This document shows, in pieces, positions 7,525 through 37,724 of a stretch of DNA of 64,000 bases (position 1 is the stretch's first letter; each line of letters opens with the position of its first letter). The notes under the pieces are model-generated. The model saw only the letters and a list, made by a program, of their open reading frames with translations, searched no databases and was not told the origin of the DNA. The position numbers and the translations under genes are program-made. Source of the DNA: Psammoneis japonica (taxonomy: Eukaryota); assembly GCA_008632985.1 (NCBI GenBank), contig QPGO01000003.1:124001-188000 (forward strand), read 5' to 3'.

Positions 7525-9030
7525 ATGGTGACGGTTTCTCGTACTTTACCCATACTGTTTGCTCTGCTTACAGTAGTATCCAGCAACTGGACTGAGTTGC
7601 AGTCCGACACTAGCAACCAAGTCGACGCCAACCTCAAAAACCAGTTTGGTGAATTCAGCAAGTTTTTCACTGATTCTCGACGACTTAGCGGCAGTGGAAG
7701 CGGCAGCGGCAGTGGGAGCGGCAGTGGCAGTGGGGGCGGCAGTTGGAGCAGTAGCAGTAGCAATGTAATGCCCCAGCAGTTGAATGCTCCATCCAACCAG
7801 TATGATGCGGACTCTGTGGTCGCAAGCCAAAGTGTGAACGAAAAGGACGGGTCGAAATACGCCGGAGGGGGGCTAACGGCACAGGGAGCAACTGCACAGT
7901 ACGCAGTTTCGCCAGAATTGGAAGACAATGTTTCAACCTGCGGTGGAAGCAAAACCTTCTATGCGAATGTCTTAGTTGAGCATTTCCTCCAGAATTCAGA
8001 GGACCTTCCAAGAAGCCTGCTTGAGCAGATGGAGGATATTTTTCGTGACACATATAACTCTCTGAATACTCCGAGAACGAATCATGCTGTGTGTGACAAA
8101 GCCAAGATGCGCTACATTGCAGATGTGAAGGTTTATGCCAAGGATAACATCTACAAGCAGATTGACGGGCAAAAGATTGCTCGTCGCAATTTCTTTTATC
8201 GCGTGACCGGAAAGTGCATCGATTGCGATGAGGATGAGACAACTATCTTTGATTTGGCGCCGCATCGAGCGGAGCATACGATTATTGCGTTGATGAATGA
8301 TTCAGAATCTGCAACGTGCAGTTGTGGGGCCCAAAGTGAGAATAGAAGAGCTCCCACCGAAGTCGAATTTAGAGATGCCTTTCGCAAAAACATCAAGGGC
8401 CTTGTAGCTGAGGGGTCCCAGACCAATCTTCGATCCGCAGATAAAGTTGTCGAATACGATATCGTTGACTGCCAGGGGGGCGCCGACAATTTTGAAACGG
8501 AGGTGTGCGTTGACCTTTCCGAAGAACCAGTGGATGAAAGCATTGCGCAGCTTGAGGATGGATTTCTCAATTCTTATAACACGCTTGCTGTTTCATTCTG
8601 TGATCCAGCGCATCGTTTCATTGAGAAAGTGGAAATTGAAGACAGCTCAAGATTCTTGGAGGTGGTGACAAAGAAAAAGAGACGGAGAAAGTTGTTCAGG
8701 GTCAAGGGCTTTTGCAGGGGGTGCAAGAGAAGCTCAAGTTTATTTAATGATGCCAGCGACAATGAGTCGACACGAAATCTTCGTGGCAATGACGAAGGCG
8801 GCCGCCGCCTAGCCGACATGACGGACTTTTGGTACAAGCTTTTCGACCTTTACCACAAGAAAGAAGATGGCCGGGATGAATGCTTTTGCGCAACACGTCC
8901 ACTAGCACGCCGAGCCCCCAATGAGATCGAGGTTCGAGATTCATTCAACGCTGTTCTTACTCATGGAAGTAAGAAGGGCTATGTGAAGCAATCTATAATT
9001 GCAGAGCAAGTAAAATCCGTCGGCAATTGA
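7525..9030 (+). CDS. Secreted hypothetical protein with GS linker and two copies of a Cys-containing domain
   Basis: Clean ORF with normal composition and signal peptide MVTVSRTLPILFALLTVVSS. Repeated motifs F..sYN.L..CD..R.I..V / RV.G.C..C / C.C....RRAP.E.E.RD.F. The frame is open from 7405. Confidence 0.8.
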   Translation: MVTVSRTLPILFALLTVVSSNWTELQSDTSNQVDANLKNQFGEFSKFFTDSRRLSGSGSGSGSGSGSGSGGGSWSSSSSNVMPQQLNAPSNQYDADSVVASQSVNEKDGSKYAGGGLTAQGATAQYAVSPELEDNVSTCGGSKTFYANVLVEHFLQNSEDLPRSLLEQMEDIFRDTYNSLNTPRTNHAVCDKAKMRYIADVKVYAKDNIYKQIDGQKIARRNFFYRVTGKCIDCDEDETTIFDLAPHRAEHTIIALMNDSESATCSCGAQSENRRAPTEVEFRDAFRKNIKGLVAEGSQTNLRSADKVVEYDIVDCQGGADNFETEVCVDLSEEPVDESIAQLEDGFLNSYNTLAVSFCDPAHRFIEKVEIEDSSRFLEVVTKKKRRRKLFRVKGFCRGCKRSSSLFNDASDNESTRNLRGNDEGGRRLADMTDFWYKLFDLYHKKEDGRDECFCATRPLARRAPNEIEVRDSFNAVLTHGSKKGYVKQSIIAEQVKSVGN

Positions 9031-9247
9031 TTGAAACGGAGAACCGGATTTAAAACGCACTTACACAGTAACCTTTACATGTAACTTCAACATCTCACGC
9101 TATCTTACGTGATAAGAAATAGACAGCACGTGGATGAGTGCTCTTGCATCGTTTGTGATGCTATTTGTGCCTGCGTGCATGGCGGGGTTCTCTTTTTTTC
9201 ACTCCCGATTGCAACAATGTTGGTAGCAGGTCATAAACAAAAAAGAC

Positions 9248-9420
9248 CATATACGCATCGAAAAAGCAGAATCCATGGTGACACTTGTTTTGGAAGGGTA
9301 ACAAATAAGGTAACGAAATCATCTGGAAACGATGCGGAAAGGCTTGATGACCCGTGCAAAGTGAAACCACATAATGTTGTGAGCATCAAAACGGGCGTGT
9401 ATCGTGTGCCTCGACTTATG
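9248..9420 (-). repeat. Diverged copy of the subtilisin start codon and upstream region (5427-5595)
   Basis: gaaaaagcagaat(c/t)catggtgac, ggtaacaaataaggtaacgaaa and cttgatgacccgtgcaaagt(g/t)aaaccacat are shared in the same order. Confidence 0.85.
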
Positions 9421-9498: not shown

Positions 9499-9659
9499 TG
9501 GATGAACGGTGAAACAGCATGCATGTGACTCGCGGAAGGGCTCATGTAACTATGTACAAGCAGCGACTTTGTGTCGTGTGTGTCGTGTTGTATGCAAGTC
9601 TTGTCAGTGTTGCAAAACATCAACATTTGGACAAGCCTGTGCTTTTGGCAGCAAAAGCA

Positions 9660-10420
9660 TGATTGTTGGCTGCCTTGGAGGCACTGATCATTTCAAAATG
9701 GAGGTGTGCATTGATCTTTCCAAAGAGCCAACAAATGAAAGCATTGCTCAGCTTGAGGATAGATTTCTTGGTTCTTGCGGCATGCTTGCTGTTCCATTCT
9801 GTGATCCAGCACATCATTTCACAGCAAAAGTGAAAATTGAAGACTGTCAAGATTCTTGGTGGTGGTCACACAAAGAAAGAGAGATGGAGAAAGCTGTTCA
9901 GGGTCAAGGGCAGGTGCAGGGGTTGCAAGAGGAGCTTGAAGCTCTTTGGTGGTGCCAGCAACAATCAGGGGACACAAAATCTTGGTGGCATTGATGAAAA
10001 GGTGCCCGCTGCAGAACTGACACAATGGACTTTTGGTGCAACCTTTTCAACCTTTTTGTCACAAGAAAAAGAAGATGGGTGGGATGACTGCTTTTGTGCA
10101 ACATGTCCACTGGCACACACCAAGCGCCCCAAATGTGATCCAAGCTCAAGATTTGTTCAATGCTGTTCTCATTCATGGAAGCAAGAAGGGTTGTGCAAAG
10201 CAACCCATGATTGCTGAGGAAGCAAAATCTGTTGGCAATTGACTGAAATGAGGAATCTGGTTCAACACACACTCAGCAAAGTGCACGTGACTTCAACATC
10301 TTGCACTGTCAGCACTTGGATGAGTGCTCTTGCATTGTTTGTGATGCTCTTGTGCCTGCATGCACAGCAGGTTTCTCTTTTCCCTTTTCCACTCCCTGCC
10401 ACAGCAATGTTTGTGTGGCA
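9660..10420 (+). pseudogene. Hypermutated, frameshifted duplicate of the 3' part and 3' UTR of the 7525-9030 gene
   Basis: Aligns with ~8460-9230 (EVCIDLSKEP vs EVCVDLSEEP; KLFRVKG; KSVGN*). Many TA->TG/CA and CG->TG/CA changes plus indels. Confidence 0.9.
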
Positions 10421-10649
10421 AGGGCCCAGCCTCTGACAAACAGCACACTTTGCCTGCCAAGAAAGCAGCACCCTTGGGGGTCGTGGAAAGGAGGGAGATG
10501 TGCATCCTCACAGTGATGATTTTGGAGCTACGTTGTCGGATGTCCGTGCACATTTGTGCTCTTTTGTGCTTGCTGTTCCTCTTTGCTTGCACTCACTGCA
10601 TGTCATTCATTTGTTTCCAGATTAAAGAAATTGTTTCCGATGAATGTCA

Positions 10650-13400
10650 CAAACTGGTCAGAACTTTCCCAGCCAACGTTGAGCAAATCAACTTCATTGC
10701 TCTCACTCCATGAAGAAGCAACCGCATTGCTGCCGCTTGTGAGGTTGCCAACTCATTGATGGCAGGTGATGGTGTCAACAGCATGGTTTGCACACGATGT
10801 TCCTTTGAACATCTAGAAAGCTGTGCCATCTGTCCTCCCATGTGCTGTCAAATGCTGCTGCAAAAGGCTTGGACTGCCAAGTCTCTTGTGGACAGTGACC
10901 ACAAGCTTGACGCAGTGTCAGAGGCCACAGATGCAAACTGCAGTCACCTGGGCAGAAGGAGGAAGTGCAAGACAACGGAAACCAGCATGGCAGACATTCT
11001 CAAGGAAAAAAATTTGATCCTTGGGTGAAAAAAGTGCCAACCGCCAGACACCCCAATTGGGCAAAACAACAAGCACTGGGGAGCAACTTCCTTCTTCCCA
11101 ATGGATGAGAACAAGTCACAACAGTTGCCCACTGATTTCAATCTCACCAATTGGAAAAGATCAAGAATTTGTGGGAAAGGCAGTTGTTCTTCATTGAGAA
11201 AAAATGGGGCTGCCAGATTCAAGTGCAGTCCTGTCTGCATGTGAACTGGCATGCAGTGATGGGGGAACAGATTCTGCAAAGAATGAGCTTGCCTTGGAGC
11301 CAGGTGGTGACATTTGTGTGTTGCCCAATTTGCGCAATCATCCATGTTCCTCATTGCATCCAAGGGATCTGACCATCATTGACGAGTGCAATGTTGCTGG
11401 AATCGATGCTCCTGCTGATGGCAAACAACTTTTTCAAATGCTTCAATTGCCATGAGAGATTGCCAGACAAGACCTTTTGTCTCAAGCTGCCAGCATGATT
11501 GCAGATGAATGCAGAAAGTTTTGCTCCATGGACAGCGGGATCAATGCAACAGGTGGGAAATGGAGCAGAAGCTGTGGCGTGGAAGCAGCAATGCCGGGAT
11601 GCCCACCCAGAGTGCCCAACCAAGCTTCTTCAAGGTTGTGGTGGCGGTGGACACTGCAGCTGTCTGCGATGGAACACAATGATCACAACAGGGTGCAACA
11701 AGTGCCACGAGACAAAAGGTTGCCAAAAACCATCAAAGATGGCCAAACTGCCCCCTGACGAACTGTGGGAGGTTCTGAGAGAGTTCCACGCACACACATC
11801 CTCAATTGGAGCAGTGACTTGGCATTTGGATGCAAGCAATGGGAAGAAAAATGATCACAATCACATTGCTTTGGCCTCACATTTTGTCAAAAACTGGTCC
11901 GTGTTTCTGTCCCAAAAGAATGTCAACAAGCTCATGGAGCGAGCATTTTGTGCCTGCAACAAACAGCTGCTTCACACACTTGTCATGCACTTGGTTGATC
12001 ATTGACAGACAGTTGGACAAGCTGGAGTTAAACACAAATTGTCCACATGCGGAGTCCTTGATGTCAGTCTTGCAAGAACACTTGGATGCCATTGACCTTT
12101 GCACACTCAGCAGCCAGGAAGAAATTTCTAAGGCACAAGAAAAGACACCATCCATGGCGGAAACACACGTGATGTCCAGTTGCAGCAATGGAAGGTGCGT
12201 CAAGATGAAGGAGGGTGAGACTCAAACAACAATGCTTGGGTGCATTGCATGGCTGTGGATTTTGTTTTGCGATTGCTGCAATGGAGCCGTTCATCTCAGG
12301 CACATTGCAGAGTGCAAGGGGTTGGTTTGCAGGGAGTGCAACGGAACTCCACTGCCAGCTTGGTCTGTTTTAACTGCAATCTCTTGGCCATCTTGGGAAA
12401 GAGTCCTTTTGGCTCTGTCTCAACCAAGAGGCAAGCTGTTCAAGTGCATTGTGCAATTGGTGAAAGAGGCAAAATGTGGTGGTGACCTTAGCAAGGTTTG
12501 CTCTTCATTCCACCCAAGGTGGCAGAACACAAACAAAAGCCTGTGTGGCCGCGACGGCAATCCTGAAACCAAGGATTGTCCATCTCAGTTCATTCATTTT
12601 TTGGAGGAGCAAGACAGAGTGCTGTGCAATCCAAACTCGACAGAACAAGAAAACAACACAGCTCGTCAGTTGTCAACAGATGGAAAGAAACACAAGGAAA
12701 CAGGCGCACCAGAAAAAAAGTGGGAAGCAGTGCAGCTGGGAAGTGCAAGAGGCACTTTGTGCATCCAATCTGGTGCCTGCATTGGGGATTGTCCTTCTGA
12801 GAATGCCTTGCATGCTGCTTTAAATGATGATGATAAAAACGGATTCCATTGGCACCTGGTTGACACCATGGCAGACAGCCATCCCTTTGAATGTTCTGGT
12901 GGAATCAAGCCAGAGGAGGCTTGGAAGACATGTGAAGCTGCACGGAGACCAGTGCGCAACAACAAAATGCCAGCAACCATGGCATGCCTGGGCTGGCTCT
13001 CTTGCCACCTGCACTGTCTAAAGAAGCATGGTTTGAAAGAGGACTTTATTTTCCTGCATGATGATGGCACAGTGTTTCATTGCCCATGCAATGCAAGGAG
13101 TTGAGTGCTGCTGCCATGAAGACACATGGATTCAAACACCAGTTTGAGTTCTTTGCAGATGACAAATGGAGTGGACTGGAGAAATTTGTTGCCAAATGCA
13201 ACCACACAACTGACCCGGAGAGTGTGTGGTTGCATTCCAACCTTGCAGCCTGCCACCAAAAAATGTTGACGGAATTCGGGAAATTCATGTGAGGCAAAAA
13301 ACTTTGTTTTGATGATTTGTCATGCTTCACACACACTCCTGCCTCCAGAGCACATGTTGCCATTTAAAAAGATGTCCGGCAACTCATCCTTCATGTTGAC
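10650..13400 (+). pseudogene. Decayed long coding region inside repeat block, possibly a second ORF of the adjacent transposon
   Basis: Overlapping protein-like + strand fragments (11499-12005, 11830-13104, 13080-13292) lacking Tyr. Family not recognised. Confidence 0.35.
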
Positions 13401-13899
13401 AACAAACAACATCTTTTTGTCCAAGAGCTCTTGATTGGACATGGTGCCGGACAGAGACGGGTTGGTTGCCTTGGTGCCATCCTCTAATTTTTTTCAATGC
13501 TTGTTTTTTGTTTTGTGCCTTTCTTTCATTTTTTCCCTCTGCCAACAAGCATGTTTTTCTGACAATGCTGAAAGGTGCGTGTTGGTGACATGCCCTCCAT
13601 TCATCAATGCTGAAACAAACTGTTCTCACTCATTTCCCTTTCATCATCGCTTTGCTTCTTGCACATTCTCCCAAAAACAACAACCTCTTTTTCATTGTCA
13701 CTTGGAACAAACCCATGCAATTGCATTGGAAATGAGCTGTTGGTTCCATCATTGTTTCTGCATGCAACGCGAGCAAAGTCATGCCATTGCCCAGCCTTGC
13801 ATCAGTTTGGGTGGGCGCTAAATCTCAGCTCATGTTCCGACTGTAGATTCAACTCAGAACACTCCACAGTGTGCCTCTGTTTTTTTTCCCGCTGGTTTC

Positions 13900-16800
13900 A
13901 ACGGAACAAAAAATCTGCTGCATCCTCCTCCAAATGAGCGCTTTGTTCCCTTTTCATCTTCAAGGTTCCGGTGCACTTGCAACATGTTTTTTCGAATTGG
14001 TCAACAGTGCGTGACCCAAGTTGAGGGGCAATGTTGTGTTGGGTGGCAAATCATCATTGGCAAGGGGATGGACAATCAAATCACTCACTCTCTCCAACAG
14101 ACTCTGCTTGCACAGTCAGCCAGCAAGCTGATGGGTGAACTCTTCTTTGCCTTGCAAGGCTTGGCATGTCTGGCTGGGAACCAGACTCACCTGCCGCGGC
14201 ATCCCATCCGGAGAATGTGCCCAATCAATGAAGAGCAGTGATGAAGTGAAGAAGATCATGGAACTTTGACGTTTTCCATCCATGTGTGCCTTTGCCATGA
14301 CTGATCATGCTGCACAGCTCAAACATCAGAAGAACAAGGTGACATTCAATGTCAACATGATTGGTGCGTGAGTGCAGGTGACAACCACAGCTGTAAAAGG
14401 AGTGGAACAACAACAGTTTGTTGAGCAAGAGCAACAGGTGATCCACATCGTCACAGTCCTCTGAATGGCCAGCCGGCTCAAGGTTGAGGCTCTTTGGCCT
14501 GTTGCGGAATGGAACAGGCAACTCCTTTTCAATTTCAGAACAGACCATTGGTTGGTCATGGACAGTCGCCTGTGTGTTTGGTGCCTGGCGGCAGTCTGCA
14601 CAGCATCTAAAACTGTCAGAGACGGAGGAATCGTCATTGTTGGGGATGCAGAATTGTTGATCTGGGTTGACATTTCTTGTTTGCATCCACACAATGTTGC
14701 AGCAGAGATGGGCTTGAGTTTTTGTCAGCTGCAAAATGTGAGGACATGTGTGCAAGAGCCTGTGATGGCCACATTGATTCTCCAGAAATTCGTTGTGGAC
14801 CGGGTTGTCATGGTCGCATTCTTTGTCAGCATGGGGCTTGTCAACCGGGGATGTGGATGGAGGCATCCATTGGATGGTCCTCCGGAGATGCTTCCTCTGT
14901 GTCACTCTCTTTGTTGTCATCTTGTGGATTTGGCTGGTGTTCATCGGAATCAAATGCTGACTCATCATCTTTGTCAAGCAAATTGTTGGGATTGTTGGCA
15001 ATGTCTTTGCCTTCTTTGTGCACATGACCATCATTGTCTTCTTCTTCACAATCATGGATCTCTTCTGGAGGCGGCTGGCCATCAAAATTGGAGGCAAGTT
15101 TTTCTTTGTCTTGTCAAAATCTGGATGGCAATGAAGATGGAGCATGCTCCATTCCTCCACAGTCTGACCCATGAGTGCTGTTGCAAACAGCTTCCCCATC
15201 TTTTGGTCACAGGTCAAACCAGACAAGGTGCAGAAGCCGTTTCACAGGACGACCAGTGGAAACTTTGATCTCTGACCTGGTCTGCACCACTGAGATCCAA
15301 ACGTGCAGTTTCCCAAATTGTTTGGTCAACCTTTGGTGGAGTCAGGCAAATCGTCAACAATGATGGAAAGCATCTGAGGGACTGTGCCACTTTGGAACAT
15401 GTGCATTGGATTGGGTGCCACAAAACCGAACACAACCTGACAATTCTCTCTCATCCGAATGGGAAAGAATGAGTTGTCAACCGTGTGTTGGCCAAATGCC
15501 TTGTGAAGTGTGGTGGAACAAATGTTCATGCACTGGACAACTGCACTGCATGCCTTGGAACGGATTGATTTGGCTTTCAACTTGGACATCACTGTGTTTG
15601 TTTGTGATTCAACAAACAGATGCCATGGACTGTCTGTGGAGCCGGGTGATGGTCCAAGAGCTGCAGCAGTTGAACGCTCCATCACTTCCTGAGAAAAACA
15701 CCTGCAGCAATGCAGTGGTTTGTTGCTGCACATCCAGGAAGTGTGACAGGCATGACCAATGCAGCAGGTGTTTTTGCGTCCAGAAACACGGCCAGTCACT
15801 TGTGCGGTGTTAACAGCATCACCCAACAATGTCACACTGTGAACAACAATGCACTTAAAACAACACTGATTGCCAAGTTGGACTTGGCAGACAGGAGGCA
15901 TTTCTTGCACTTGAATTGCAGATGCAAGAAGGACAGACAAAATGTGGTGACAATTTCTGACATTCAACCCAAAAACGGGGTTCTTCGTTTTGCAACCTCT
16001 GCATTTCAGAGTGAATCCAAGAGGACGCCATGCTTCAAAATGTTGGTGGGCACATGCCTTGATGAGAGTCACAGAGAAAACAAGTGGCTCCATCGAATGA
16101 GGTGCAACCTGTCCTTTCCCAGTTTTGTTGATGCAGTGCACCACAAACACATGAAAAGAACCAGGGATGGCGGGGACGTTGCAACCACGCAATCAGCTCT
16201 CCTGTGGGTTTCACCGTCCTTCATTTCAGCATCGTCACAAAGTTTCCAGCCACCATTCTTGTCCAGCATGGGTTCACTGGAGAGCACCTGAGACCAACGT
16301 GAATCAGCAGGAATGTTGACATTTGAAAGATTGGTGAAAAGGGGATCATCGAACAAGTCCTGCAGTTGCAGGGAAAATTCATGCCCAGGGATGCCAGGAG
16401 AAAGCTCCTGCTGCAGGTCATTCTTGAATTGGTTGACGATGGACACAGACTCAAGGGGGGGCACACTTCAGCACCAGAGCAACAATGCTGGGCAACATTG
16501 ACTTGAGCTTGGACATGAAAGTTCAAGAAGAGGGAATTTGTTGGGTGACAGACAACCCACCACTGGGGGGGAATTCCTCCTGCACAGTTCTCAGCAATTC
16601 ATCTGTCACACTGATTGGGACACCCTCAGAGTGACACAAATTCATTGTGTGGACCATGGATGTGGTTTTGCTGTTGATGACTTTGGGCGCCATGAGGTCC
16701 TTGTCAGCAAGAGGTGTTCAACTTGATCAAGTGCAGCAAAAGCACCAGATTTGGCAACCGCAGTGGTGGAACCCTTGGTGTCGGAAACAAGTTCTTCATG

Positions 16801-17230
16801 GTCAGGAAACTGGCATTCTGAAACATCATTGGCAAGGGGCAGAATGGCATTGTTGTGGGACACATGCATCTCTGGCGCAGATGAAAATGCACGATTGGGT
16901 TGCAACGGCCGGGGACTGAGTCACAAGCAACCTTGTGGAGTTGGCCTGGCGTTGGAGTCGGGCCCTGCAGTGACAAATTCAACGGGAGGAATGCCAAGGG
17001 CAGAAGAGGCAGCAACATCCACTTGTTCATCCGATTCCCCCCCTTTGGTGCTGTTTGCCATGAGCAGTGTTGGACTGATGAGAAGAAATGACACAAAGGC
17101 TTTGACAAAAGGACAGTTTGCAGGGAAGACAAGTTCTCAGGTGGTGTTGAAGACCAGTTGGGAGAAAACATTTGCCACAAACATGGGACAATCATTTCCA
17201 ATGGTGAAGGGGACACCATTGTTCATGTTG
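13900..17230 (-). mobile_element. Decayed Plavaka/EnSpm(CMC)-like transposase
   Basis: Fragments VHCINKTG..MEPLVFSVTLIK..AWRPLGF, RNCHHILSVLL, LLGD and GWKTSKFHDLLH resemble Plavaka-type transposases with Tyr->Cys/His. Many frameshifts; ends not found. Confidence 0.55.
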
Positions 17231-18444
17231 TGCCAACAAGTGAGGTGCCAATGAGTGGGATGAACCACGTGGTGAAAACGACATGTGGCAGGCAACAAAA
17301 TTGTGTTGCACAAGTAAACTCACATGCAAGCATGTGAGGTTGCAGCTTGGTTTGATGCACAACATCAGTTGTCTGCATGCCGGCATGCAGCACTTGCATC
17401 AAGCAATCAACAACGGAAAGACAAATCCAACTTTCCACAGCAACAGAAATTTTGTCATGCTGGCGTGCATCTCAGATTGTTGCTCCACCAGGTGTTGTGC
17501 CGCCAGAGATCATCACAACATTGTCTTGTCCCCTGCTCTGCAATGTTGACAGCAACAGCACTGGGTGGCTGGGTGGCTTGCTGCCAAGTCAACAGCTCCA
17601 TGCAAGCATCACAAAAGCACCAAGCTCAGTGCTGGAACAAGGTTTCCTGCACTCATTGGCGTGCAATCTTTTGATGTTTCTTTTTGTGCCATCAGTTTGA
17701 CTGACAACTCAGCAAAATCTTTGAGCAAAGCACCATCAAGCTGAGCAACACCAAACTTGGCTCAAACAGTGTGCACAGAGTTCTCCAACAAGAGCCTCTT
17801 CAAAGTTGACAAAGCAGCTCTCATGCAATTTTCACACTCACCTGCCAACTTTGTAGAAACCAGTTTGCAACTCTCTTTTTTGCAGCCACAAATTCAGGGC
17901 AGCCCTGCCATGTTGGAGATGGGGATGATGGGGACAAGCCACACCACTCCCTGACTGCAGCTGCAGTTTAAAATCAAGTTGAAAATTGATGACTTGGTGA
18001 AAACTTGTGATTAGAAAAAATTGTGGGAGGGTTCAGATGAGGTGCCTGCTGCCTTGGGATGTCAGCAAGGCCCTCTGACAGCTGTCTCATGTGTCCAGAT
18101 GAGAGTGCTGGGCTCAGTTGCAGAAGAGAACTTGCACAATCATGCAAATGCAACATCGCCAATGGACAAAATCACACAGTGCAAATCATTGCAGCTGATG
18201 GATTGCAGTCTCCATGCCACACCCCATGTTGCAAAAATGAAGCAGCAAGTGATGCTGCACCCAAGCTGTTGCAAAACAAAAAATGCACAAAAATTTTGGG
18301 GAGAGCTGCAGAGTGACTCAGCACCATGCAGGCATGTTTCTCAAACTGCGTGCAAGCCTCATGTGGGAAGTTCAAAACTGCACGTGAAACTGTTGATTGC
18401 TGTCAACAAAGTTGCGCTGATTTCTCTTTCATGGAAAAGCCACC

Positions 18445-18570
18445 CATTGTTCAAAGTTGCCAAGTTTGAGCAAACGGGACTCAAAGTTTGAGCATTTGTT
18501 CAAACTTGTGCAAGTTTGAGCAAGTCGCTCAAACTTTTGCTCAAACATGACATGTGTTTGAGCAATTGCG
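18445..18570. repeat. Array of TTTGAGCA/TGCTCAAA motifs (related array at 20500-20577)
   Basis: Several copies in both orientations. Perfect palindrome TGCTCAAACTTG-C-CAAGTTTGAGCA at 20514-20538. Confidence 0.7.
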
Positions 18571-18655
18571 CAACCTTGGCCCCAAAAGCTCACAATCTTC
18601 ATGATCACAGTCATGTGAGTCACAAGCATCCTGCAAAGACAAATGGTCAATTTAA

Positions 18656-19590
18656 CCCTTTGACACATGAAATTGCTCATTTGGGGCCAGGCCCCAAACA
18701 AGAATTTAACGGTCAGACATTTTGTCTGACAAATCTTGACAACCACGATTTGAGCACAATGCCTGCTCTTGTGAACGGGAACCACGACAACTTGACAATG
18801 GCAGTTTCAGGACGCGAGACCCCATTTGCTCTCTGTTGACAGGTCTTCACAGCATGAACTCCATGCATTTGTGTGTGTCCATTTAGCCAACACTTTAGCC
18901 ACACAATTGTTTTCCATCCGAATCAATGGTGTGTCAATCACAGACAAGCAAACACAGCAAATCAGGGGGAAATTGACAATGTCAGGTTCGCGACACGGCA
19001 ACCACCTTGTCATTGTCTGAGACAAATGAAAACAACACGATCAAAACAACCATGCTCAATTTAATCTAAATCGTGACTTTCATGTTGATTGTTGATCATT
19101 TTGGTGCCGCAAGATTTGACTTTGCGCCAACAAGTAAAAACAAGAATCGAACTTGTGGTGGTTTGATTTTTGTTGCCATGCAGCACTTTCAACCACTCCT
19201 TTTCATTTTTTGTTTCCACCAACAAATGATTCTGAAATCTGAGATTCCTGCATGACAGTTGCAGCTTTCCCGCCATTTTCTCTGGCCGCCGAAATGGCAG
19301 TCGAGTCACCATCTTTGGACACTGTTGCGGAAGCAAAAAATCTTGTTTTCTCGTCTGAGTTTTCGCATGTGATTGCTCAACAGACCAGTGCAACAATTGA
19401 CGTAAACAGCCATGAAAATCTTTCAATGCCTCGAGCACATTCGTCACTCGAATCTCATTTGGGGCCAGGCCCCAAGTGATTTGGCCGTTGTTTTCCCGCC
19501 AAAATTTGCTTGTGGATTCATTCATTTGGACCAATCAGGATGGCGCACTGTTTGGGGCCAGGCCCCAAACAGTGGCCATGTGTCAAAGGG
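18656..19590. mobile_element. piggyBac-like non-autonomous element (935 bp)
   Basis: 14-bp TIR CCCTTTGACACATG / CATGTGTCAAAGGG, flanked by TTAA (18652-18655) and TTGA (19591-19594). An empty-site copy lies at 19780-19825. Three subterminal TTGGGGCCAGGCCCCAA palindromes. Confidence 0.85.
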
Positions 19591-19594
19591 TTGA

Positions 19595-19970
19595 GACATG
19601 TGCACAAATCATTCCCTTGATTTGATCAATCAGTGCACATGCACAAATGCGTGAACTTGAACGATTTTTGTTCAAGTTGCCATGGCAGTCTGATGCTGTT
19701 TTTGACAACTTGTTTCAACTTTGCAATTGTGAAAGTGGCACCAATCAATGATGAACACAGTCATGTGAGTTGCAAGCATCCTGCAAAGACAAGTGGGCAA
19801 TTCAAGACATGTGCACAAATCACAAATCATTCCCTTGATTTAATCAGTCAGTGCACATGCACAAATGCGCGAACTCAAACGGCTTTTGTTCCAGTTGCCA
19901 TGATGGTCTGATGCTGTTTTTGACAACTTGTTTCAACTTTGCAATTGTGAAAGTGGTGCCAATCAACGAC
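19595..19970. repeat. ~210-bp tandem repeat; first unit (starting ~18600) interrupted by the piggyBac-like element
   Basis: 19595-19750 aligns with 19806-19970, and 18600-18655 aligns with 19750-19805. Confidence 0.85.
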
Positions 19971-21354
19971 AATGCAAAGCAGATGTGAAGTGTGTGTCAA
20001 AGGAAATGTCGAGTTGTGCCACATTTCATGCTGAAATTGTTGACTCGCTGTTTTCAAAGGGCTTCAATGGCCTCGATGCACCACCCAAAAACGGATGCAC
20101 AAAGGCCCCCAAAACAGTTCTGCAAGACACAGAAATGACCACACAGATGGATTTTGACATGTGAGGTTTAACATCACCATTTTCAAATTGATTGATTTTA
20201 GAGCAGGGGGTCAAAATGTCCCAGGATGAGGGCTCAAGAACTTTCCAGTTGAAAGTCAATGAAGTTCTTGGCCCACAAGTCCACATTTGTTTCACAGACA
20301 AACAAGAAATGGCACCTCTGTGCCAACTAAAATGTGGCAGTTCTGATGGCGCACTTTTGTTGTCATGCAGCAGAACTTTGATGCAGTTGTGGTCAGCCAT
20401 GCGGCGCTGTCAAGGACATTTTTTCATGCTCTTGGGATGTGGCATGGGAACAGCAACTTGTGTGATCTTCCATCATTTGTGTTGAAAACAATTTAGATTT
20501 TGCTCAAACAAGCTGCTCAAACTTGCCAAGTTTGAGCAAATTAGAGTGCAAGTTTGAGCAGCTGTTGCTCAAACTTTCTGTGGGAAAACCCAAGACTCTG
20601 GAAATCTCAGCATGACCACCAAATTTTGCTGTGTGCACCACCATCACTTTGCACGTGTCCATTGGGATTTCATGCACACACACATTTGCACAGTTTGCCC
20701 ATGCTGTGCTGAAAGAGAGCACATGAGAGAGAGCCAGCTTCTCTTTTCCACCAAACGAGAATGCGTGCACTTCTTCTCAGGGACACACAGGAGTGCCCCA
20801 TGTGGTGATCACGACGTGTCACTCCTTCCATGAGTGATTCCAACATTCTTCATGGAAAAAGTGTTGTGCATGGGCTGGGAGGTGTGCATGCCCGTTGGCT
20901 GCTGTTCCATCAATCTGAGGCACCGGTGCGATCATTTGACCATCAGGATTTTCATACAAGAGAAGATTTTAGAAAATTTGAACAGGCCAGGGCACACACT
21001 GTTATTAATGTTAATCGCTGTATACTGTTCTTATAAAATGCTGAAAAAGCAGCACAAAAACATAATATTCAACGCATGTATCTAAATACTTGCATCTACA
21101 TATATTCATTATCCTTTTTACGCGGGAAAACCCCAATGAAACTACTTTATTCATGATAGTCAATATTTCGACGGAGTCACCCGTTTTCTACACCGCCAGG
21201 AACACAAAGCAGAGCAGCCGACACATGGTTTCAGGTTCAACGACGTACAAGGGCTACTGCAACACCATTTTTTCAACCGACCCAACACAGCAAAGGGTCA
21301 ACACACTCTCTACCAGAGTTAGAGTCAATCAACAACTGCAATCATTACATCATC

Positions 21355-23882: not shown

Positions 23883-24652
23883 GGTTGGAAGGTGGTGTTT
23901 AATGCAAAGTCAACAAGAGTAAATGATAAGCTCGCCGGTCGCTAGACTATCGCCGGGCGACTTTTACTGAAACACCGATTTTATTTGACAGCTGTTCTGC
24001 GAAGATAGCAAGAGAGTCGCCTTGTCAGTGGCTCTGGGTGTGTTCGCGAAGTTGGCGTTCATTTGCAGATTGGGGTGCCAGTCTCCATCCGCGGCAGGTG
24101 TTTTTCAACTGGGGGCGGAGTATTTGAAAACGAGAAAGAAGGATGGGACTTTCTAAGAGAATTGCGCGCATTTGCCTTTGCAGGGACAGAGAGACCATCG
24201 GCCGCGCATGACTGCCAGACCATTTTCAAATACGTTTTTATTTTGAACGCAATACATCCGGGTTTAGGGCTGTTTCAGCACCACGTGGAAGCAACAGAGG
24301 GGAGGCGAACTGAAACTCGAGTCGTCGATTTCAACTCGCTGGTGAGCGAAGTGCAGACGTCCATCAATCGGACGTTTAAATTGCAATGCTGTGTGGGGCT
24401 CCTAAATATGTCTTAAAAGACATTCTCCATTAATCGACAAAGGTTTTGGCAATGAAATAAATTTCACCCTGATCTAAAAGGTTGGATGTCGAAATGCTTT
24501 GAAACGGCAAATCTTCTGCGAGAAACACAGTGTTGTCCTGCGCTGGCATGCAGACGGGGTTTTGGAACATGAGGGATGATGGTTCGATCGACAAACAACA
24601 GCAGAGCATCAACCATCAATCGACATCAACAGTGCTCCAGTCCAGAACTCAG

Positions 24653-27600
24653 ATGGGTCGTCCAAAGAAAAGCAAGAACAAGCCTGGGCATCGTGCTGGT
24701 GGAGACAGGCGATCTAAGAGCCGTGCAGAATCAAAGAAGAAGAAAACGGGAGCTTCGCATCCTGTTTTTGAGGCAGCAAAGCAGAACACTCAATGACGTG
24801 CTGATGAGGAGCTCTCACCTGACGAAAAACATCACAAGCATTGAGAGGCATTGCAGCGAGCTGTTCCAGCCCTTCAAGCTGCTTTTGAACATCCAGGCAA
24901 TCGACACTCTGTTCCTGGTTTGGTGGCAGCACCGTGTTCACCGGACGATCAAGATGAGATCAATGCCATTCTTGATGGAGATGTTGCTGTGCACGAGACG
25001 CAGCAGTCTGCGGTGCACCACCGCGATTCCTGCATGCCCCCCGAGGACACTCCCGTCCACAATCATTTGACTAAGATCAAAGCAAAAGTGCAAAAGAAAG
25101 ATGGCGAAACAATGACAAAAATCAAATCGGGCGCGAAATGGATGCCACCACCTTGCGATCCGCTCAGTGCTGGCTTGGGTTCATCACCAAAGCCTGACAA
25201 GTGGCACCTTGGAAGTTGCTGGGCACATCTTTGGTTTCCACCAACAGCCTGTCCCAATCACTCACCAGACAAGTGTGTGTGTGCTTTTTGTGGTGAAACC
25301 AACACCGAGTCAAAGGGACCAGTGTTCAGACCGATGGTTGAGTGGATGAAAACTGCACGGATGCTTCATCATTGCGCCCTTTGTCTCTCCCAAGGTTGCT
25401 GTGGCAGGTTGGATGATGATGGGAAAATTGCTAAATCATTTGCTGCCATTGACCCTCTGCATTTGTCAAAGCTTCCTCTGGAGGTGGCAGAGAGATTTGA
25501 TTTCGTCACAAGTCGCCGAGGGCCTGGAATGCACGAGAGCATGTGCTGTGCTTGTCGCGTTTGGCCAATCACTCTGTTTTTTCTGGTGCATTTTCATCAA
25601 TGGTTGATGAGACCTGAGCATTTGATTGTTCTCGGCAGCAATGCAGCTGCTGCAAGTGTCTTCTGGGTGGGATCCAGTTGAAGCTGTTGGCCACCGTGGG
25701 CAGGACATTGTTCCATGCTCGGCTTTTGCGGAGCCAGGAGCACACAATGGGGCACAACTGTCAGCTGCCAGGGTTGCAAACAGCTTTAATGTGTTCATGG
25801 AGGATGTGCTGGAGGAGCACATGCAGGGTTCGTTTGAGCACAATCAAGACGCACAGATTGCTGTTGATGAGACGTTCAAGTGCTGGAGTGAGGTCCAAGC
25901 ATGCCTTTCCAACGTTGGCCAGGTGAAACCGTTCCTTGCATCTTGCAATCTCATGTCAGGATCTGGGAAAGTGAGTGCAAGTTCACCTGTGTTTGGGAAA
26001 GGACAAGACGAAGTTGAGCCCATGCTCCGTCGCGTTCAGGTGGCAAGGAAGGCGCAAGGGGCACCCAAGCTCGGCCGATTCGACGCAGACAATGTAAAGG
26101 GCGGTTTGAACATGGCGAATCGTTCTTTTGAAGGTGCTGCTCACCATTCACATCTTTGAAAGTGTGTGGTGTGTGCTTCATTTTTCTGACCTTGAGTCTT
26201 CTTTCTTCCACACTGTCTTGCGCAGAGCTGAAGGATGGTGTCAGCCCGCACATCCCTAAATCTAACATGCCGGTCTTGCGATTGCCACGTGAAAGTTTTC
26301 GACGCGTTCCAGACACAGGTGGGAATCCGTGTGACATTGGGCCCGTAGACTTCTACGTGCGAGCTCCACAGTAAAATTATGCGGTAATTAAAATGTCAAT
26401 GATCGCCAACAGAAAATGAGGCAATTTTGCGAACGCACAAACTCGCCCATGATTGAAGTGCATCATTTTTTACTTGGCCAGTTGCATTCTTCAGACATTG
26501 AAGAATGTAACTGGCGCATCATTGTTTCTATAAATTCGTCACATTATAAAACGTCTGGGGCTTCGCAAAACAGAGAGTCTGGACAAATTTTTTTAAACAT
26601 CATACGTAGAAAGCTGCGTGCGAAACATGCGACGGATGACAAAAATTATTTGTGTCACACGTCAGCACTACGAGCTCCCACCTGGGGCTGGAACGCGTCT
26701 TTCATTGTTTTCGTGATGCAGCCAATGCAAATCAGTTTTTCCAGCAGAATCATGAGAACATCATCAATCTCCATGCCAGTTGTTCCGGAAAGCACTGTGG
26801 GCTCGACGCGGAGTGGAACCGAGGCCGCACTGTTGAAGCGGGCGTGTGTTGGCTGCAGGTGTCTTTCGAGGGCTTGCCTGTTGTTGTGAATGACATGCAT
26901 GCTGTGAAAGCATTCCCACATTGGTTGAAGAAAATGTTGGAAGATGGACGGCTCATTCCATGCGGCAGGCAAATTGGAGGCGACGTGAACAGACTGCTCA
27001 GGGGTCATGGAATCAAAGTCAAGGATCGTTTGGAGATTGGAGAGATGGCAAAGACGTGTGATGATGGTGGATCCACAGGTGTCACGGTGCTGTGTGAGCG
27101 TTGTCTGAATGTCACATTGTTGGACAAAGAGACTGGACAAAACACCGACTGTGAGAGCGAGTCATTGTCGCGCAACCCCGACGAGGAGACACTGACGCAC
27201 GCAGCTGCTGACGCAATTGCACACAGACTGCTCACAGTGCGTTTGCTTCAACTTGTTTTTGCAAAGCTCGGAGGTTTGTGTCAGCTGCCAGAGGCAAATC
27301 CAGTGAAGCCTGGCAGCATGGTGGACGTAATTGGTGGGGGGCGTGTCGCAGCCAGAGGTGCCGTGGTTCGAATCGGCAACTGCAGAGGCATGGGAGTGTT
27401 GACAAAGCATGGCGGTGAGCTTGTGGGCCAAGGAAAAGCACTGGCACAAATTGATGAAGTGCTGGCACCATCATGGAAATTGCCGCATGGATTTGCGGAT
27501 GACAATGCTGACGAGCCTAACTGCAGCAAAGGTGCACCTGTCGGAGACGTTTGCAGAAGGGGACACTCTGACGCGGTGGTTCTCCAGACAAGCCATCTTC

Positions 27601-30312
27601 GAATGCCACCACCGGAAGCATCTGACACAGATTTGCCTGTTGAGCATTTAGAAAACGATGTGGCAGGAAGGAGGGAGACCACTCGTTTAGCACTCAATGC
27701 CCCGCACCCCGAGTCCGATTCTACATCCGACCCCACCGAAACACACGCTGCTGAGACGTCTGGCAACCACGATAAATCAACACCAGATGAAATCTTGGAC
27801 ATGCTTCTTGAGGCTTCAAACCTTGATGATGACGCAAAGAACGAGCTTTGAAGCCGTGATGGATGCTCTTCCCGTGCGTCGAGATTGCCCGGTTGGTCCC
27901 CACCTGTGTGAACTCACCCGAGAGGCGTCCTTCATTGGGAATGATGAAGACTGCAATCCAATGTGTGAGGTGTTGAAATCCAAAGGCTTTTCTCCAGAAG
28001 ACATTGAAGAGTGTGAGTGCCACAACAAGGAGCATGTCAGAACTCGCGTCCGCATGCCGTGTCCCATTGCAGATGTGCACGCGTCAAATCTCCGAGTTGC
28101 ACACAAATTTGTTCGAGAGAGTGATGCATTCAAGCCATGTCTTACTCCAGAACTTGATGAATGGTTTGTCAACATGGCAATGAAAGCAGAGAAAGGTTGG
28201 TTTGAGCCTGTTCCCGATGTTTCAGTTTGCAGAGAGAAGGGCACAGATTCTGATGGGCTCCGACTTTGGTGGCGTGGCAGCGGAACCAACAGGTTAGAAA
28301 ATTTCCATCAGAAACTTTGGGCACTTTTGGTGGGTCAAGCGATCAGTGTTGAAACTGCTCACTGTCTGTTGGTGCTCCGAACGTTCCGTTGCAACGTCCA
28401 AACTGGCATTTTGTGCTGTGGCGAGCCCAACATTGGCCACCCATGTCTTCACACACTGGATGAGTTGCAGAACATCATGCAAAAACTCTTCAACGTGCTT
28501 GTGCTTCCCAGCCATGCAAATCTGTCGAACATGAAGCCAACCCGAACTGATTGGGTTGGAGTTGGAAAGGCAACGCTGGATGCGCAATTTGTGGAGCATG
28601 CTGATGAGCCGGATCCAGTGTTGACTCCGTCTTTAAAATTCATGGCAAAGCATCTTGGATTGCGGCACCCCCCCCCTTCCGCACAAAACAAAGGAAGACC
28701 ACATCCCACAAAAACAATGGTCGTCGAGCTCAACAGGAGCACCCGACCGATCTGATTTGGAGCGACTGATGATTTTACACAAGCAACAAGCAAATGGAAT
28801 CAACATTTTTCCCAAAACCATTTCTGTGGTCCGATCCAAGCATGAAAAGGACAAAGGAAGAGAAGCCATCAAGCACGCAAAATTGACAATGAAGGACGAG
28901 TGCAACAAAATCATTCAGAGTCTCCGTCTGCAGAGGGCTCCACCTCCTTCAGCAGTGTCACGGAAATCCATTCCCAACTTCTTGACACCGGCAGAGGATG
29001 GCGACAAAGCCTCAACATGCGTTCCTCCTGTTCAGGCCCCTTTTCAAAAAATTGAAGTTAAGTCAATGCAGCAAAGCAGAGCCTGTGCTTGTCGGGATTT
29101 AGGTTGCAAGCATGTGGCGTGGCAGTGCAATGGCTGGACATGACGAACTTGCAAGCACTGTGGCAAAGATGCTCCAAGCACGAAAAAGCAAAAAACTAGA
29201 AAGGAAGAATTGTCGGATCCATGCAGGCAATTCGCCTGGATTGGTCTTTGCAATGCTCGGGCCAGCATTTGCGGTGGCTACAACAAGTCTTCGTGCAAGT
29301 TTTATGGCAGAAATGGAATCCTAAAACAGCCCACGCAACATGCAAGACAGGAGAAGGAGCTGAAAAGAAAACGAAGTAACAAACTAAAGAACGTGGGGAA
29401 ACGACGAAAACTGGCAGAGGTTGCAGTGAAGTCGGCAACATCCACGCCAGATCATGCGCTCATAAATGGAGATCAGCAATGGGAGGTTTTGCCAGACAAG
29501 AGCAAAACGCAAGTGCTGGCAGACAACAACAACCACACCCATGTAATTGGAGAAACCGACGTGCTGAGGCTGCCTCATGACGTTCCTGTCAATGCACCGA
29601 ATGTGTGGGACCTGCTTCGGAGCGGGACTCTAATTGACGACAACGTCGTTCAGGGGCATTGCAACTTGCTCCGACAACAATTTTCTCGACTTGGCATTCG
29701 GGTTGTTAACACCAATTTTTACAACCAGCTACGATGATGCAGCTGGGCTGATGTCAACAGATGGGTGAAAGCAGTTGCCGATGACGAGTCTGGAGGCTGG
29801 GAGACATCGAAAGTCATTCTCACACCCATTTTTTCTGGATCGAACACGGCCGGACACTGGTCGATTTTTTTCATTGATCGTTCTTTTGAAGGAACAACTG
29901 CCAGCAGTGACACGAGGGAGCTTCTAGTCCATGCGGATAGCCTCCAGCCCCATGCAATCTGCAACAGCTGCACCAACAGCTTGTTGGTGCGCCACTCTGT
30001 CCTGAAAGACCCGGCGTCGAGTGCCTTGTTCCTCCACCTGCGGGACAAGGGCCAAATGATTGTGCTGTTCACACGTGTGTGAAAGCAGCAGCACACTTAA
30101 AAGCGATGGAAAATGGGTCTCTGTGTGCTTGCCACCATGACATCCAAAAGCCTGCGGTGGCATTTTCATTCTCTGGTGAGTCGACCTTGGAAGATTGGGG
30201 TGGCTTGGGACGTCAACACATCTTGCAAAGCTTGTGCCGAGGAAAAATTGATCTCGATGACCCAGTTGTTACGGAAATTTCGGTGTCTGTTTGCCTCCCA
30301 GGGAATCCGTAA
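24653..30312 (+). mobile_element. Decayed Mutator-like DDE transposase polyprotein with embedded DEDDy 3'-5' exonuclease and C-terminal Ulp1/C48 protease
   Basis: Putative catalytic motifs VDETFK, DADNV and GTNRLENFHQKL. WRN-like exonuclease GLDAEW..LQVS..GGDVNRL..HAAADA (~26790-27240). Ulp1-like GHWSIFFID..DSL..DC (~29600-30310). Frameshifts present. Possible 15-bp TIR at 24116-24130 / 38404-38418; no TSD found. Confidence 0.65.
26301..26699. mobile_element. MITE (399 bp) with 24-bp TIR and 4-bp TSD TTTC, inserted in the Mutator-like ORF
   Basis: GACGCGTTCCAGacacAGGTGGGA ... TCCCACCTggggCTGGAACGCGTC; TTTC at 26297-26300 and 26700-26703. Confidence 0.92.
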
Positions 30313-31327: not shown

Positions 31328-31572
31328 TGTTGCAATTTATCCTTCTGGTGACTATTTCAGAGCCACCTCAGTCCTCTAAGGTCTGATCCTGAGGCTAAAA
31401 TGGACAAGCTTGTCATCACAATGCTTTCTAAGAGTTGAAAGAGAACAATGACTGCTTCCATCTTCCATCGGCTGTTTCGTTGCTTCACGTGGAACACACA
31501 AGCGCTGACGTGTGCGTCTTCTTCACGCTGTCTAATTTTGGTGTTTGAACTTTTAACTCACCATTTCCAACA
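31328..31572 (-). repeat. 3' LTR of Copia element 1
   Basis: Direct repeat of 37480-37724 with six substitutions. Confidence 0.95.
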
Positions 31573-32100
31573 CACTCCTGCTGACCAATGACAAGATTCT
31601 TGCTGTCTCCAAATTTGACCATCTTGGGCACTTGGATGTTCATGATGGCTTGACGATCAGCAATGAACTTTTTGCCAACCACTGGTTTGGTCATGCAATC
31701 TGCCATCATCTTGTCTGTTGGGCAGAACCCAATCTCAAGTTCTCCTCGCTTGATGAGGTCAGTGATGCAAAAACACTTGATGTTGAAATGCCTCGTGCAT
31801 TTGCCCGAGCTGGCCTTTCCATTTTGTTCTAGTTTCGTGCAACTTTGATTGTCTCGATGCATGATGTTACGCTCGACTTCAAAACCTTGAGCTTCAACAA
31901 AACGCTTGGTCCAAAGGACCTTTGCCAAAACATCGTCTCCTGCGACGATCTCTGCTTCCGTAGAACTCCTGGTGTTGATCTTCTGCTTCGTGCTGACTGA
32001 TGTAATGACACCTTTTCCAAGGGTCATGGTAGAACCTGTGTGACTTTTACAGTCCGGATGGACTGCAAATGCGGCATCCGTGTGCCACTCGATGATGACT

Positions 32101-32490
32101 GACGCGTTCCAGCCCCAGGTGGGACTCCGTGTGACATTGGGCCCGTAGAATTCTACGTGCGAGCTCCGCAGTACGAGAATTTAATTAATGGATATATTTG
32201 TCTTCAACATCAAACAAACGGCCAAGTTTGTGGTGCAATTATGCCTCTTACCACTCGACGTTTTTGCAAATGCACCTGCCCTACGCGATTCTTAAGACAT
32301 TATAGAATCGCGCTGTAACAAAAAATGTCAAAAGTTGTTGGACGGATCGCTCAATAAGTGTACCGTAAAATGACACAAAATATCAAAAAAATCACGTAGA
32401 AATCTACGTGCGCGACATACGACGTGATTCAAAAAACTATCGATGTCACAGTTCAGTGGCACGAGGTCCCACCTAGACCTGGAACGCGTC
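32101..32490. mobile_element. MITE (390 bp), same family as 26301-26699, 4-bp TSD GACT, inserted in the Copia RT/RNase H junction
   Basis: Same TIRs; GACT at 32097-32100 and 32491-32494. Removal restores MSAGDKVIIEWHTDAAFAVHPD. Confidence 0.93.
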
Positions 32491-37479: not shown

Positions 37480-37724
37480 TGTTGCAATTTGTCCTTCTGG
37501 TGACTGTTTCAGAGCCACCTCAGTCCTCTAAGGTCTGATCCTGAGGCTAAAATGGACAAGCTTGTTGTCACAATGCTTTCTAAGAGTTGAAAGAGAACAA
37601 TGACTGCTTCCATCTTCCATCGGCTGTTTCGTTGCTTCACGTGGAACACACAAGCGCTGACGCGTGCGTCTTCTTCACGCTGTCTAATTTTGGTGTTTGA
37701 ACTTTTAATTCACCATTTCCAACA
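37480..37724 (-). repeat. 5' LTR of Copia element 1
   Basis: Direct repeat of 31328-31572, upstream of gag. Confidence 0.95.

Follow-up and report, generated by a model that had tools for sequence, protein, structure and literature searches.

Repeat-induced point mutation (RIP), described in Neurospora and other fungi, mutates repeats and leaks into neighbouring single-copy genes. Its changes are C:G to T:A, chiefly at CpA, so that TpA rises and GC content falls, and it mutates both copies of a duplicate; it has a length threshold, and short repeats escape. It depends on an enzyme of the RID/DNMT4 type and on a sexual phase. Vertebrates, plants and basidiomycetes are known to lose CpG from their silenced transposons through methylation-driven decay, and APOBEC enzymes change C to T or G to A in retroelement cDNA, in a TC or CC context and on one strand. 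Repeat-directed mutagenesis is so far known as cytosine chemistry, in RIP, 5-methylcytosine decay and APOBEC restriction. Adenosine deaminases are also known from hyperedited retroelements; they act on RNA, and on single-stranded DNA only when engineered. A T (or U) directly 5' of the target A is the habit of TadA/ADAT-type deaminases, the substrate context of TadA being UAC, and ADAR favours the triplet UAG. With regard to diatoms, PMC9998398 describes transposons as CG-methylated via DNMT5 in the model species, and many diatoms as carrying DNMT4 enzymes, related to the RIP factor RID, of unknown function.

The window, that is the whole 64-kb stretch analysed here, comes from a diatom, as its best named matches among proteins indicate. 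It contains an intact host gene (gene A) and, downstream of it, a broken copy of its 3' end (copy B) which lies inside a block strongly depleted of TA and CG. The features referred to below are collected in Table 1.

Table 1. Positions of the features discussed, in coordinates of the window
Feature	Coordinates	Strand	Remarks
Host gene A, intact	7525..9030	+	Open frame 7381-9030; encodes a Cys-containing protein with two repeats, from a family lacking annotation
Source segment A	8461..9230	+	Last ~190 codons and ~200 nt of 3' UTR; TA and CG retained
Second small duplicate	9247..9401	+	Copy of 5427-5577; outside the depleted block; internal control
Depleted block holding B, 11.4 kb	9592..21000		Sharp edges; mostly multi-copy by contig depth
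Multi-copy repeat piece, 52 nt	9597..9648		Contigs with loose ends: 6 at 9597, 9 at 9648
Copy B	9662..10420	+	Frameshifted partial duplicate of A; single-copy depth 62.6
TA-poor, CG-keeping block	24601..29000		TpA o/e 0.13, CpG o/e 0.69; Tyr-free ORFs
Copia-type LTR retrotransposon	31328..37724	-	LTRs 31328-31572 and 37480-37724; Tyr codons erased
MITE-like insertion	32103..32490		Inside the copia pol region; terminal inverted repeats, 4-nt target duplication
Second strongly depleted block	45601..57800		Weak P-element/TNP-like transposase remnants, 50484-53264, minus strand

A gene fragment and its source across a block edge

Gene A is of normal composition (CpG o/e about 1.0, TpA about 0.45). 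Its start codon is uncertain, ATG 7525 lying upstream of a signal-peptide-like stretch. The protein gave no Pfam match, and while a word-based homologue search found no relative, a full HMMER scan of 1.84e9 representatives recovered the family, with 216 relatives at E<=1e-3, of which 76 reach E<=1e-10; an informative Pfam domain was missing in nine of the ten best of these.

Local alignment of A (8461-9298) with B (9662-10491) gave 78.2% identity, with 629 matches, 175 mismatches and 60 gap columns, and a blastn self-comparison paired 8461-9224 with 9662-10414 at E=8e-148. In the local alignment the reading frame of B is broken by several indels of 1, 2 and 4 nt, and B lies 430 nt from its intact parent, the two segments being offset by 1.2 kb. 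Homology past ~9230/10420 scored 100.5, within the range of shuffled controls (maximum 121.5), and on this ground the idea of a perfect tandem duplication of 1.2 kb (8461-9661 and 9662-10862) was rejected.

The alignment was trimmed to 778 columns for counting the fate of dinucleotides. A single one of the 41 CG sites of A survives in B, 18 having become TG and 14 CA, and the 18 TA sites are lost altogether, with 9 converted to TG and 6 to CA; B as a whole holds merely 4 CG and 1 TA in these columns. The remaining dinucleotides of A were retained in 460 of 662 cases, and Fisher tests against them gave p = 9e-19 for CG and p = 9e-10 for TA. The loss of TA shows no gradient, 18/18 being gone over the full 760 nt. 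The trimmed alignment holds 149 substitutions (108 transitions and 41 transversions), and divergence is 49% (62/126) inside CG and TA as against 14.3% (87/607; 57 transitions, 30 transversions) outside them, where the spectrum is symmetric between the two copies. The 14.3% divergence indicates that B is old and that the loss of CG and TA is superimposed on ordinary divergence.

The 3' untranslated stretch of A (9031-9230) contains 10 TA and 10 CG, and its counterpart in B (10242-10420) no TA and 1 CG. Since TA and CG are kept even in its UTR, the integrity of A is not merely a matter of selection on the protein. All four Tyr codons of the duplicated segment read Cys in B. A sequence-only reading of this DNA had claimed that a duplicated host-gene fragment was hypermutated next to an untouched source, with gene and 3' UTR keeping TA and CG, and the aligned counts bear this out: loss of TA and CG in B far exceeds that of other dinucleotides, UTR included, and every A-to-B change that it had quoted was found (8833, 8903, 8970, 8994/8996, 9011, 9018 and 9021).

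The gene family gives the polarity of the change. At 50 family-conserved columns the consensus residue is present 39 times in A and 30 times in B, and at the 15 columns where A and B disagree it is that of A in 10 and that of B in 1; B has Cys in place of a Tyr conserved in 91% of the relatives, and His in place of an Arg shared by 93% of them. Judged by this consensus, B is thus the derived copy and A the unmutated source.

The losses in B were set beside duplicates elsewhere in the window. A subtilase internal repeat, 81.7% identical and in DNA of normal composition, retained 22/36 CG, 12/19 TA and 68% of other dinucleotides. The second small duplicate, which sits 190 nt outside the depleted block, is 90% identical to 5427-5577 and retained 6/8 CG and 4/5 TA, at a background divergence (10%) comparable to that of B. 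Segments A and B form a natural experiment on targeting, with one copy inside the block and one outside, and with 9247-9401 as the control.

Copy number was taken from the depth of contigs of one public read set, possibly the assembly's own source. The genes and B are at single-copy depth (about 60-115), and one contig of 1596 nt covers 9169-10764 with 0 differences from the window; "single copy" here means that no other contig matched at >=80% likeness, a level below which hypermutated sister copies could fall. Over 10337-17673 and 18341-19674 the contig depths add up to 340-1470, and over 6335-7001 to 7924. The 52-nt repeat piece begins at the composition switch (~9592) and ends 14 nt upstream of B, and to the right of B repeats begin past ~10764. 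B is single-copy DNA enclosed by repeat-derived DNA. Depletion extends likewise to ~70 nt upstream and ~340 nt downstream of B that are unrelated to A, and stretches that are single-copy at the >=80% level (17454-18681 and 19927-21000) are as depleted as multi-copy ones. The mutation thus acts on DNA other than transposons, and since B and its non-homologous flanks are both mutated, transposon sequence is not required, which supports the earlier claim that the process is not specific to it. The same reading had placed B against an 11-kb transposon block. The repetitive nature of the 9.6-21 kb block is supported by contig depth (340-1470), although the 22 ORFs of 9592-21000 gave no Pfam domain even at E = 0.05.

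Composition of the blocks and the motif that is lost

About 40% of the window is in the depleted state. The blocks concerned have sharp boundaries and lie at 1-600, 5801-7000, 9592-21000, 45601-57800 and 63001-64000, while 24601-38900 is in an intermediate state of depletion. On the left of the block that holds B the final TA is at 9591 and the final CG at 9584, with 1 TA and 1 CG in the next 400 nt, and on its right dense TA is back at 21003; block edges are sharp on a scale of 10-200 nt. The P-element/TNP-like matches in the second strongly depleted block had E = 7e-4 and 0.03, both under the Pfam cut-offs, and the block with these weak remnants is as depleted as retroelement DNA. The 64-kb window contained no tRNA gene and no Rfam family.

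Composition was compared between 26.4 kb of pooled depleted blocks and 21.9 kb of genic DNA. The ratio of observed to expected TpA was 0.05 in the blocks and 0.55 in genic DNA, and that of CpG 0.33 and 0.94, while CA stood at 1.81 against 1.26 and TG at 1.72 against 1.22, with GC content at 0.48 and 0.47 respectively. AA, AT and TT were not depleted in the blocks, nor were TC (o/e 0.99) and CC (0.84), the latter pair excluding dipyrimidine damage by UV as a source.

The hierarchy of targets was derived from the ratio of trinucleotide frequencies between depleted and normal DNA. This ratio was 0.01 for ATA/TAT, 0.05 for GTA/TAC, 0.10 for CTA/TAG and 0.20 for TAA/TTA, giving the order TAT > TAC > TAG > TAA, and 0.30-0.46 for trinucleotides that contain CG. 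No trinucleotide free of TA and CG differed by more than 1.74-fold between the two kinds of DNA, as against the 100-fold fall of ATA/TAT. Of the trinucleotides that contain A, depletion was limited to those that contain TA (AAT 0.88, GAT 0.82, CAT 1.19). Eukaryotic 6mA is associated with ApT, but ApT as the true target was rejected, ApT not preceded by T being undepleted. A signature like that of polymerase eta, which is WA, was likewise rejected, AA being unaffected and AAA/TTT standing at 1.14 and AAT at 0.88. The TA sites that survive in blocks are TTAA, CTAA or TTAG in 50 of 83 cases. All long ORFs in the blocks contain 0-0.5% Tyr, as against 1.3-3.7% in host genes.

Several stretches (24601-29000, 5830-7238, 57538-58471 and 62763-63000) are nearly free of TA and have kept most of their CG, and the Tyr-free ORFs of the first include one that is 3'-5' exonuclease-like. 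TA is lost ahead of CG in the blocks. As TA is gone where CG stays, its loss is no side effect of the loss of CpG, and a by-product of the repair of CpG deamination was rejected for the same reason.

The copia element keeps long open frames, and its LTRs are identical at 239/245 positions (97.6%). Its RT region was aligned with the best 60 of 441 homologues, the named members of which are from diatoms. One of 12 conserved Tyr residues is retained, 9 having become Cys and 2 His, while other conserved residues are retained at 208/228, including 14/14 Arg, 6 of them still encoded by CGN; the catalytic YVDD now reads HVDD. Tyr makes up 0.2% of this copy and 2.8-5.6% of the best 60 of the 441 homologues. 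Four related copia loci, from metagenomes and other organisms, have normal TpA (o/e 0.58-0.75), and loss of Tyr and TA is thus not a trait of the copia family. In the copia element and B together, changes of Tyr to Cys outnumber those to His by 13 to 2 (p = 0.007), an excess that fits a target A with T on its 5' side and a pyrimidine on its 3' side. This context rule gives the right outcome for 7 of the 11 TA sites of B that could be scored, and both copia changes of Tyr to His, where a pyrimidine precedes the T, break it; the TAY context is a preference and not a law. With 11/12 Tyr gone at 97.6% LTR identity, change at TAY would run at hundreds of times the background rate, unless part of the loss was inherited from a decayed parent copy or came as a burst.

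Change after integration could be followed in pairs identical at birth, namely the copia LTRs and a 401-nt tandem pair (30149-30946). These now differ at 5/30 TA, 3/54 CG and 9/561 other sites (TA against other, p = 3.5e-4). Six of the nine "other" differences form three adjacent CA/TG doubles, which are expected when one ancestral TA or CG decays independently in two copies. Of the TA sites of the LTRs, two have changed, each of them TAT, and five are intact in both LTRs, all CTAA or TTAA; the tandem pair differs at 3 TA sites. Pairwise change amounts to ~0.33 per TA and 0.005-0.016 per other site, so that the rates differ by a factor of at least about 20, even though resistant contexts are already over-represented among the TA sites measured. 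Comparison of the window with diverged copies elsewhere in the genome (2291 contigs) gave 1415 transitions and 670 transversions, again with adjacent CA/TG doubles, at 10776/7 and 16335/6. Since the LTR and tandem copies differ mainly at TA and CG, the change happens in place, on DNA and after integration.

The MITE-like insertion in the copia element has a second copy at 26301-26710. Both copies, ~400 nt long and inside depleted blocks, show normal TA and CG. A continuous and purely positional process accommodates them only if each was inserted very recently; otherwise short elements would escape, which would point to a recognition that depends on length or copy number.

Proposed mutation by location and the alternatives to it

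We favour, at a probability of about 0.62, a joint reading in which two transition processes act in place within the repeat blocks, B having been mutated by its location and A spared. DNA in the blocks would undergo C:G to T:A change at CpG and A:T to G:C change at TpA, the latter faster and favouring the A of 5'-TAY-3', and as both would converge on TG and CA, GC content would stay unchanged. B would have arisen when the 3' end of gene A was duplicated locally; it came to lie inside the block and was mutated there by location and not by pairing with A, while A, 430 nt outside the block, was spared. The CpG half would represent deamination of 5-methylcytosine in methylated repeats, and the blocks themselves would correspond to silenced chromatin. 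The loss of TpA is too motif-bound and too fast for repair or conversion bias, and we infer an enzymatic origin for it. A TadA/ADAT-like deamination of adenine to hypoxanthine in DNA could be envisaged as the first choice, because of the habit of this enzyme family of acting 3' to T (U), with a mutagenic thymine modification that mispairs with G, such as 5hmU or base-J chemistry, as the alternative. Somewhat short of even odds, and thus tentatively, we propose that the diatom possesses an activity linked to genome defence or heterochromatin which converts A:T to G:C at chromosomal 5'-TAY-3', beside the deamination of CpG in repeat blocks. Such an activity, whether it deaminates adenine in DNA or modifies TpA mutagenically, would mirror RIP by erasing Tyr codons and the stops TAA and TAG with GC content untouched; it would kill transposon proteins within ~1% of background divergence, and it would mutate any DNA that lies in a block.

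The sequence-only reading had ascribed the targeting to chromatin domain rather than to pairing of homologues. Its positional half is supported: as A is clean, the mutation was not steered by any pairing of A with B; it is restricted to the blocks, and position inside a block is the sole predictor visible in the 64-kb window. Its chromatin half would follow if the blocks are silenced. Spreading or leakage from recognised repeats may, however, give the same picture around B. This could be envisaged as a RIP-like, perhaps premeiotic recognition of long multi-copy elements, with ~1 kb of leakage that hits B as a bystander and leaves A out of reach. B does lie between the 52-nt multi-copy piece and multi-copy DNA from ~10764, and the composition switch at ~9592 coincides with the start of that piece. 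The sparing of the ~400-nt MITEs recalls the evasion of RIP by short repeats, the near-total loss of Tyr in an otherwise well-kept copia element resembles a burst, and diatoms have the RID-related DNMT4 enzymes mentioned above (PMC9998398). In contrast, A and B form a linked duplication of ~760 nt, and yet A is unmutated even in its UTR; the single-copy stretches 17454-18681 and 19927-21000 are equally depleted; and B shows no gradient in the loss of its TA. The young duplicates go on gaining differences at TA and CG, which fits continuing decay as well as bursts. Taking both sides together, we regard leakage as unlikely, though it deserves serious attention.

Far less probable is editing of RNA or cDNA during retrotransposition, which would make B an edited, 5'-truncated retrocopy of the mRNA of gene A. 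B does consist of a 3' coding end and 3' UTR, as a truncated retrocopy would, the sense-strand change of A to G (Tyr to Cys) dominates by 13 to 2, and T before the target A is the preference of known adenosine deaminases. However, a retrocopy is very unlikely to land 430 nt from its parent, the sequence of B shows neither a poly(A) tract nor a target duplication, and the depletion includes the flanks of B that do not derive from A. Of the 15 changes of TA to TG or CA in B, 6 are T to C on the sense strand, and the loss of CG would be left unexplained. As the block that is probably a DNA transposon is equally depleted, and the LTR and tandem copies diverged at TA after integration, RNA or cDNA editing is not the main route. 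Modified bases (5-methylcytosine at CG, a modified A or T at TA) mis-called as TG or CA in a long-read assembly could give a strictly motif-bound signature such as this one, and systematic mis-calls at methylated motifs are known in nanopore consensus sequence. We give such an artefact very little credence, since contigs over 9169-10764, 17454-18681, 19927-21739 and 21713-24151 (k-mer depth 58-64, from a run that is possibly the source of the assembly) show 0 differences, B has frame-breaking indels and 14.3% divergence at other sites as well, and the diverged genomic copies contain CA/TG doubles. The decay of a neutral pseudogene with CpG decay, in which the loss of TA came by chance or by a bias of AT to GC such as biased gene conversion, draws on the age of B (14.3% divergence at other sites) and on CpG decay being commonplace in repeats. 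This can be practically dismissed: 0/18 TA against 460/662 other dinucleotides were kept (p = 9e-10), ATA/TAT is down 100-fold when trinucleotides with neither TA nor CG change at most 1.74-fold, and the spectrum between A and B is symmetric outside CG and TA. AA, AT and TT are not depleted, and there is thus no general drive from AT to GC; GC-biased gene conversion was rejected on this count and because the change of CG to TG runs in the opposite direction.

Comparison with known systems

A full-text search of openly accessible articles (main texts) yielded no paper, on diatoms or on other organisms, that describes repeats mutated from TpA to TpG/CpA, a term look-up in PMC2806351 and PMC12994199 found no mention of it, and the TpA component of this mutational state appears undescribed. 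If the joint reading is true, it would mean adenine editing of eukaryotic DNA as a defence, or an unrecognised modification of TpA in diatom heterochromatin. The blocks are invisible by GC content and would therefore escape both RIP indices and isochore scans; the output of gene callers will include long Tyr-free frames from within them, and transposon ages calculated from divergence will be inflated.

As in the decay of methylated CpG, CG in B has turned into TG and CA almost equally (18 and 14), at a rate well above the 14.3% background, and the loss is limited to repeat blocks and absent from genes. In contrast to that decay, which leaves TpA untouched, TpA is here lost faster and more fully than CpG. 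Thus, while CpG decay is present, it does not account for the whole signature, the loss of TA being stronger than that of CG and present where CG is kept.

The change of A to G with T (U) directly 5' of the target is shared with A-to-I editing by ADAR, ADAT and TadA, and the preference for TAC and TAT resembles the UAC substrate context of TadA. Unlike the RNA adenosine deaminases, however, the present process involves both strands of chromosomal DNA, probable DNA-transposon sequence and a gene fragment, and unlike ADAR it finds in TAG a comparatively poor target (ratio 0.10, against 0.01 for TAT). Hypermutation of retroelements as a host restriction is common to APOBEC, but the TC (o/e 0.99) and CC (0.84) contexts are undepleted here.

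As in RIP, repeats are filled with context-specific transitions that destroy their coding capacity, mutated compartments are sharply bounded beside intact genes, and DNA that is not repeated is hit within or beside repeats. Unlike in RIP, TpA is erased (o/e 0.05), A:T changes to G:C, the cytosine target is CpG, and GC content is unchanged; and where RIP mutates both copies of a duplicate, the parent copy A here keeps 41 CG and 18 aligned TA, as against 1 CG and no TA in B, as the sequence-only reading had rightly set out in separating this process from RIP. The mutational state of these blocks is therefore closest in logic to RIP and its leakage, but departs from RIP in defining features, namely the fall of TpA, the mutation of A:T pairs and the sparing of one copy.

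Gene A and the DNA around it

The intact host gene, gene A, encodes a protein in which a Cys-containing domain, some 110-150 residues in length, is present as two internal repeats, while its relatives, 200-2300 residues long, carry up to 8. No Pfam model was found for this domain. A direct repeat of 150 nt lies on either side of the gene, its two copies being 90% identical, and one read-derived contig (depth 48) joins position 5427 to 9260 with 18 other letters in between; this contig may represent a haplotype or locus without the 3.8 kb in which gene A lies. Within the gene, contigs of depth about 88-90 depart from it at 10 clustered positions (8081-8115 and 8789-8875), transitions for the most part, a sign that the reads contain either another allele of gene A or a closely related paralogue. 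An imperfect (CTAG/AGCTAG)n microsatellite lies immediately outside the depleted block, the repeat DNA in which TA and CG have largely become TG/CA. The internal repeat of a subtilase-like gene served as a control for normal-domain DNA.

Features of the window, with strand where assigned
Feature	Position	Strand	Basis or context
Internal repeat, 575 nt	1416-1990; 2061-2629		81.7% identical; C-terminal extension of subtilase-like gene
Direct repeat, 150 nt	5427-5577; 9247-9401		Flanks gene A
Nearly TA-free, CG-normal stretches	5830-7238; 57538-58471; 62763-63000		Each ~0.2-1.4 kb
Very high-copy repeat	6335-7001		Directly upstream of gene A; summed contig depth 7924 vs ~60-115 for single-copy DNA
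Gene A	7381-9030	+	Intact open frame
Microsatellite	9455-9500
MITE-like element, ~400 nt, two copies	26301-26710; 32103-32490		Conserved terminal inverted repeats; 4-nt target duplications
ORF, 403 residues	26640-27848	+	DNA_pol_A_exo1 3'-5' exonuclease domain, E = 3e-8
Two consecutive Tyr-free ORFs	50484-53264	-	Weak matches to TNP-like (P-element/THAP9-type) domains

TA loss with normal CG

The three nearly TA-free stretches are placed between gene 5' ends and strongly depleted repeat DNA, and their CG density is normal, at about 8 per 200 nt. By their composition they look like unmethylated CpG-island-type DNA which the TA process would still reach. The high-copy repeat upstream of gene A is likewise without TA, and CG is not scarce in it.

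Elements within the depleted DNA

Both MITE-like copies, with target duplications TTTC and GACT, have normal TA and CG density despite the TA-depleted DNA surrounding them, and one sits within the pol region of the copia LTR retrotransposon. The exonuclease-domain ORF, with zero Tyr, lies in the block that has lost TA and kept most CG (24601-29000); it is a gene carried by a transposon or else a defunct one of host origin. The two consecutive ORFs, matching a TNP-like RNase H-like domain (E = 7e-4) and a GTP-binding insertion domain (E = 0.03), both weakly, are probably a decayed DNA transposon.

Base composition

Over the whole window, depleted blocks (0.48) and genic DNA (0.47) do not differ in GC content, because the losses of TA and CG offset each other. 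Such blocks would thus stay invisible to RIP-index or GC-based scans.
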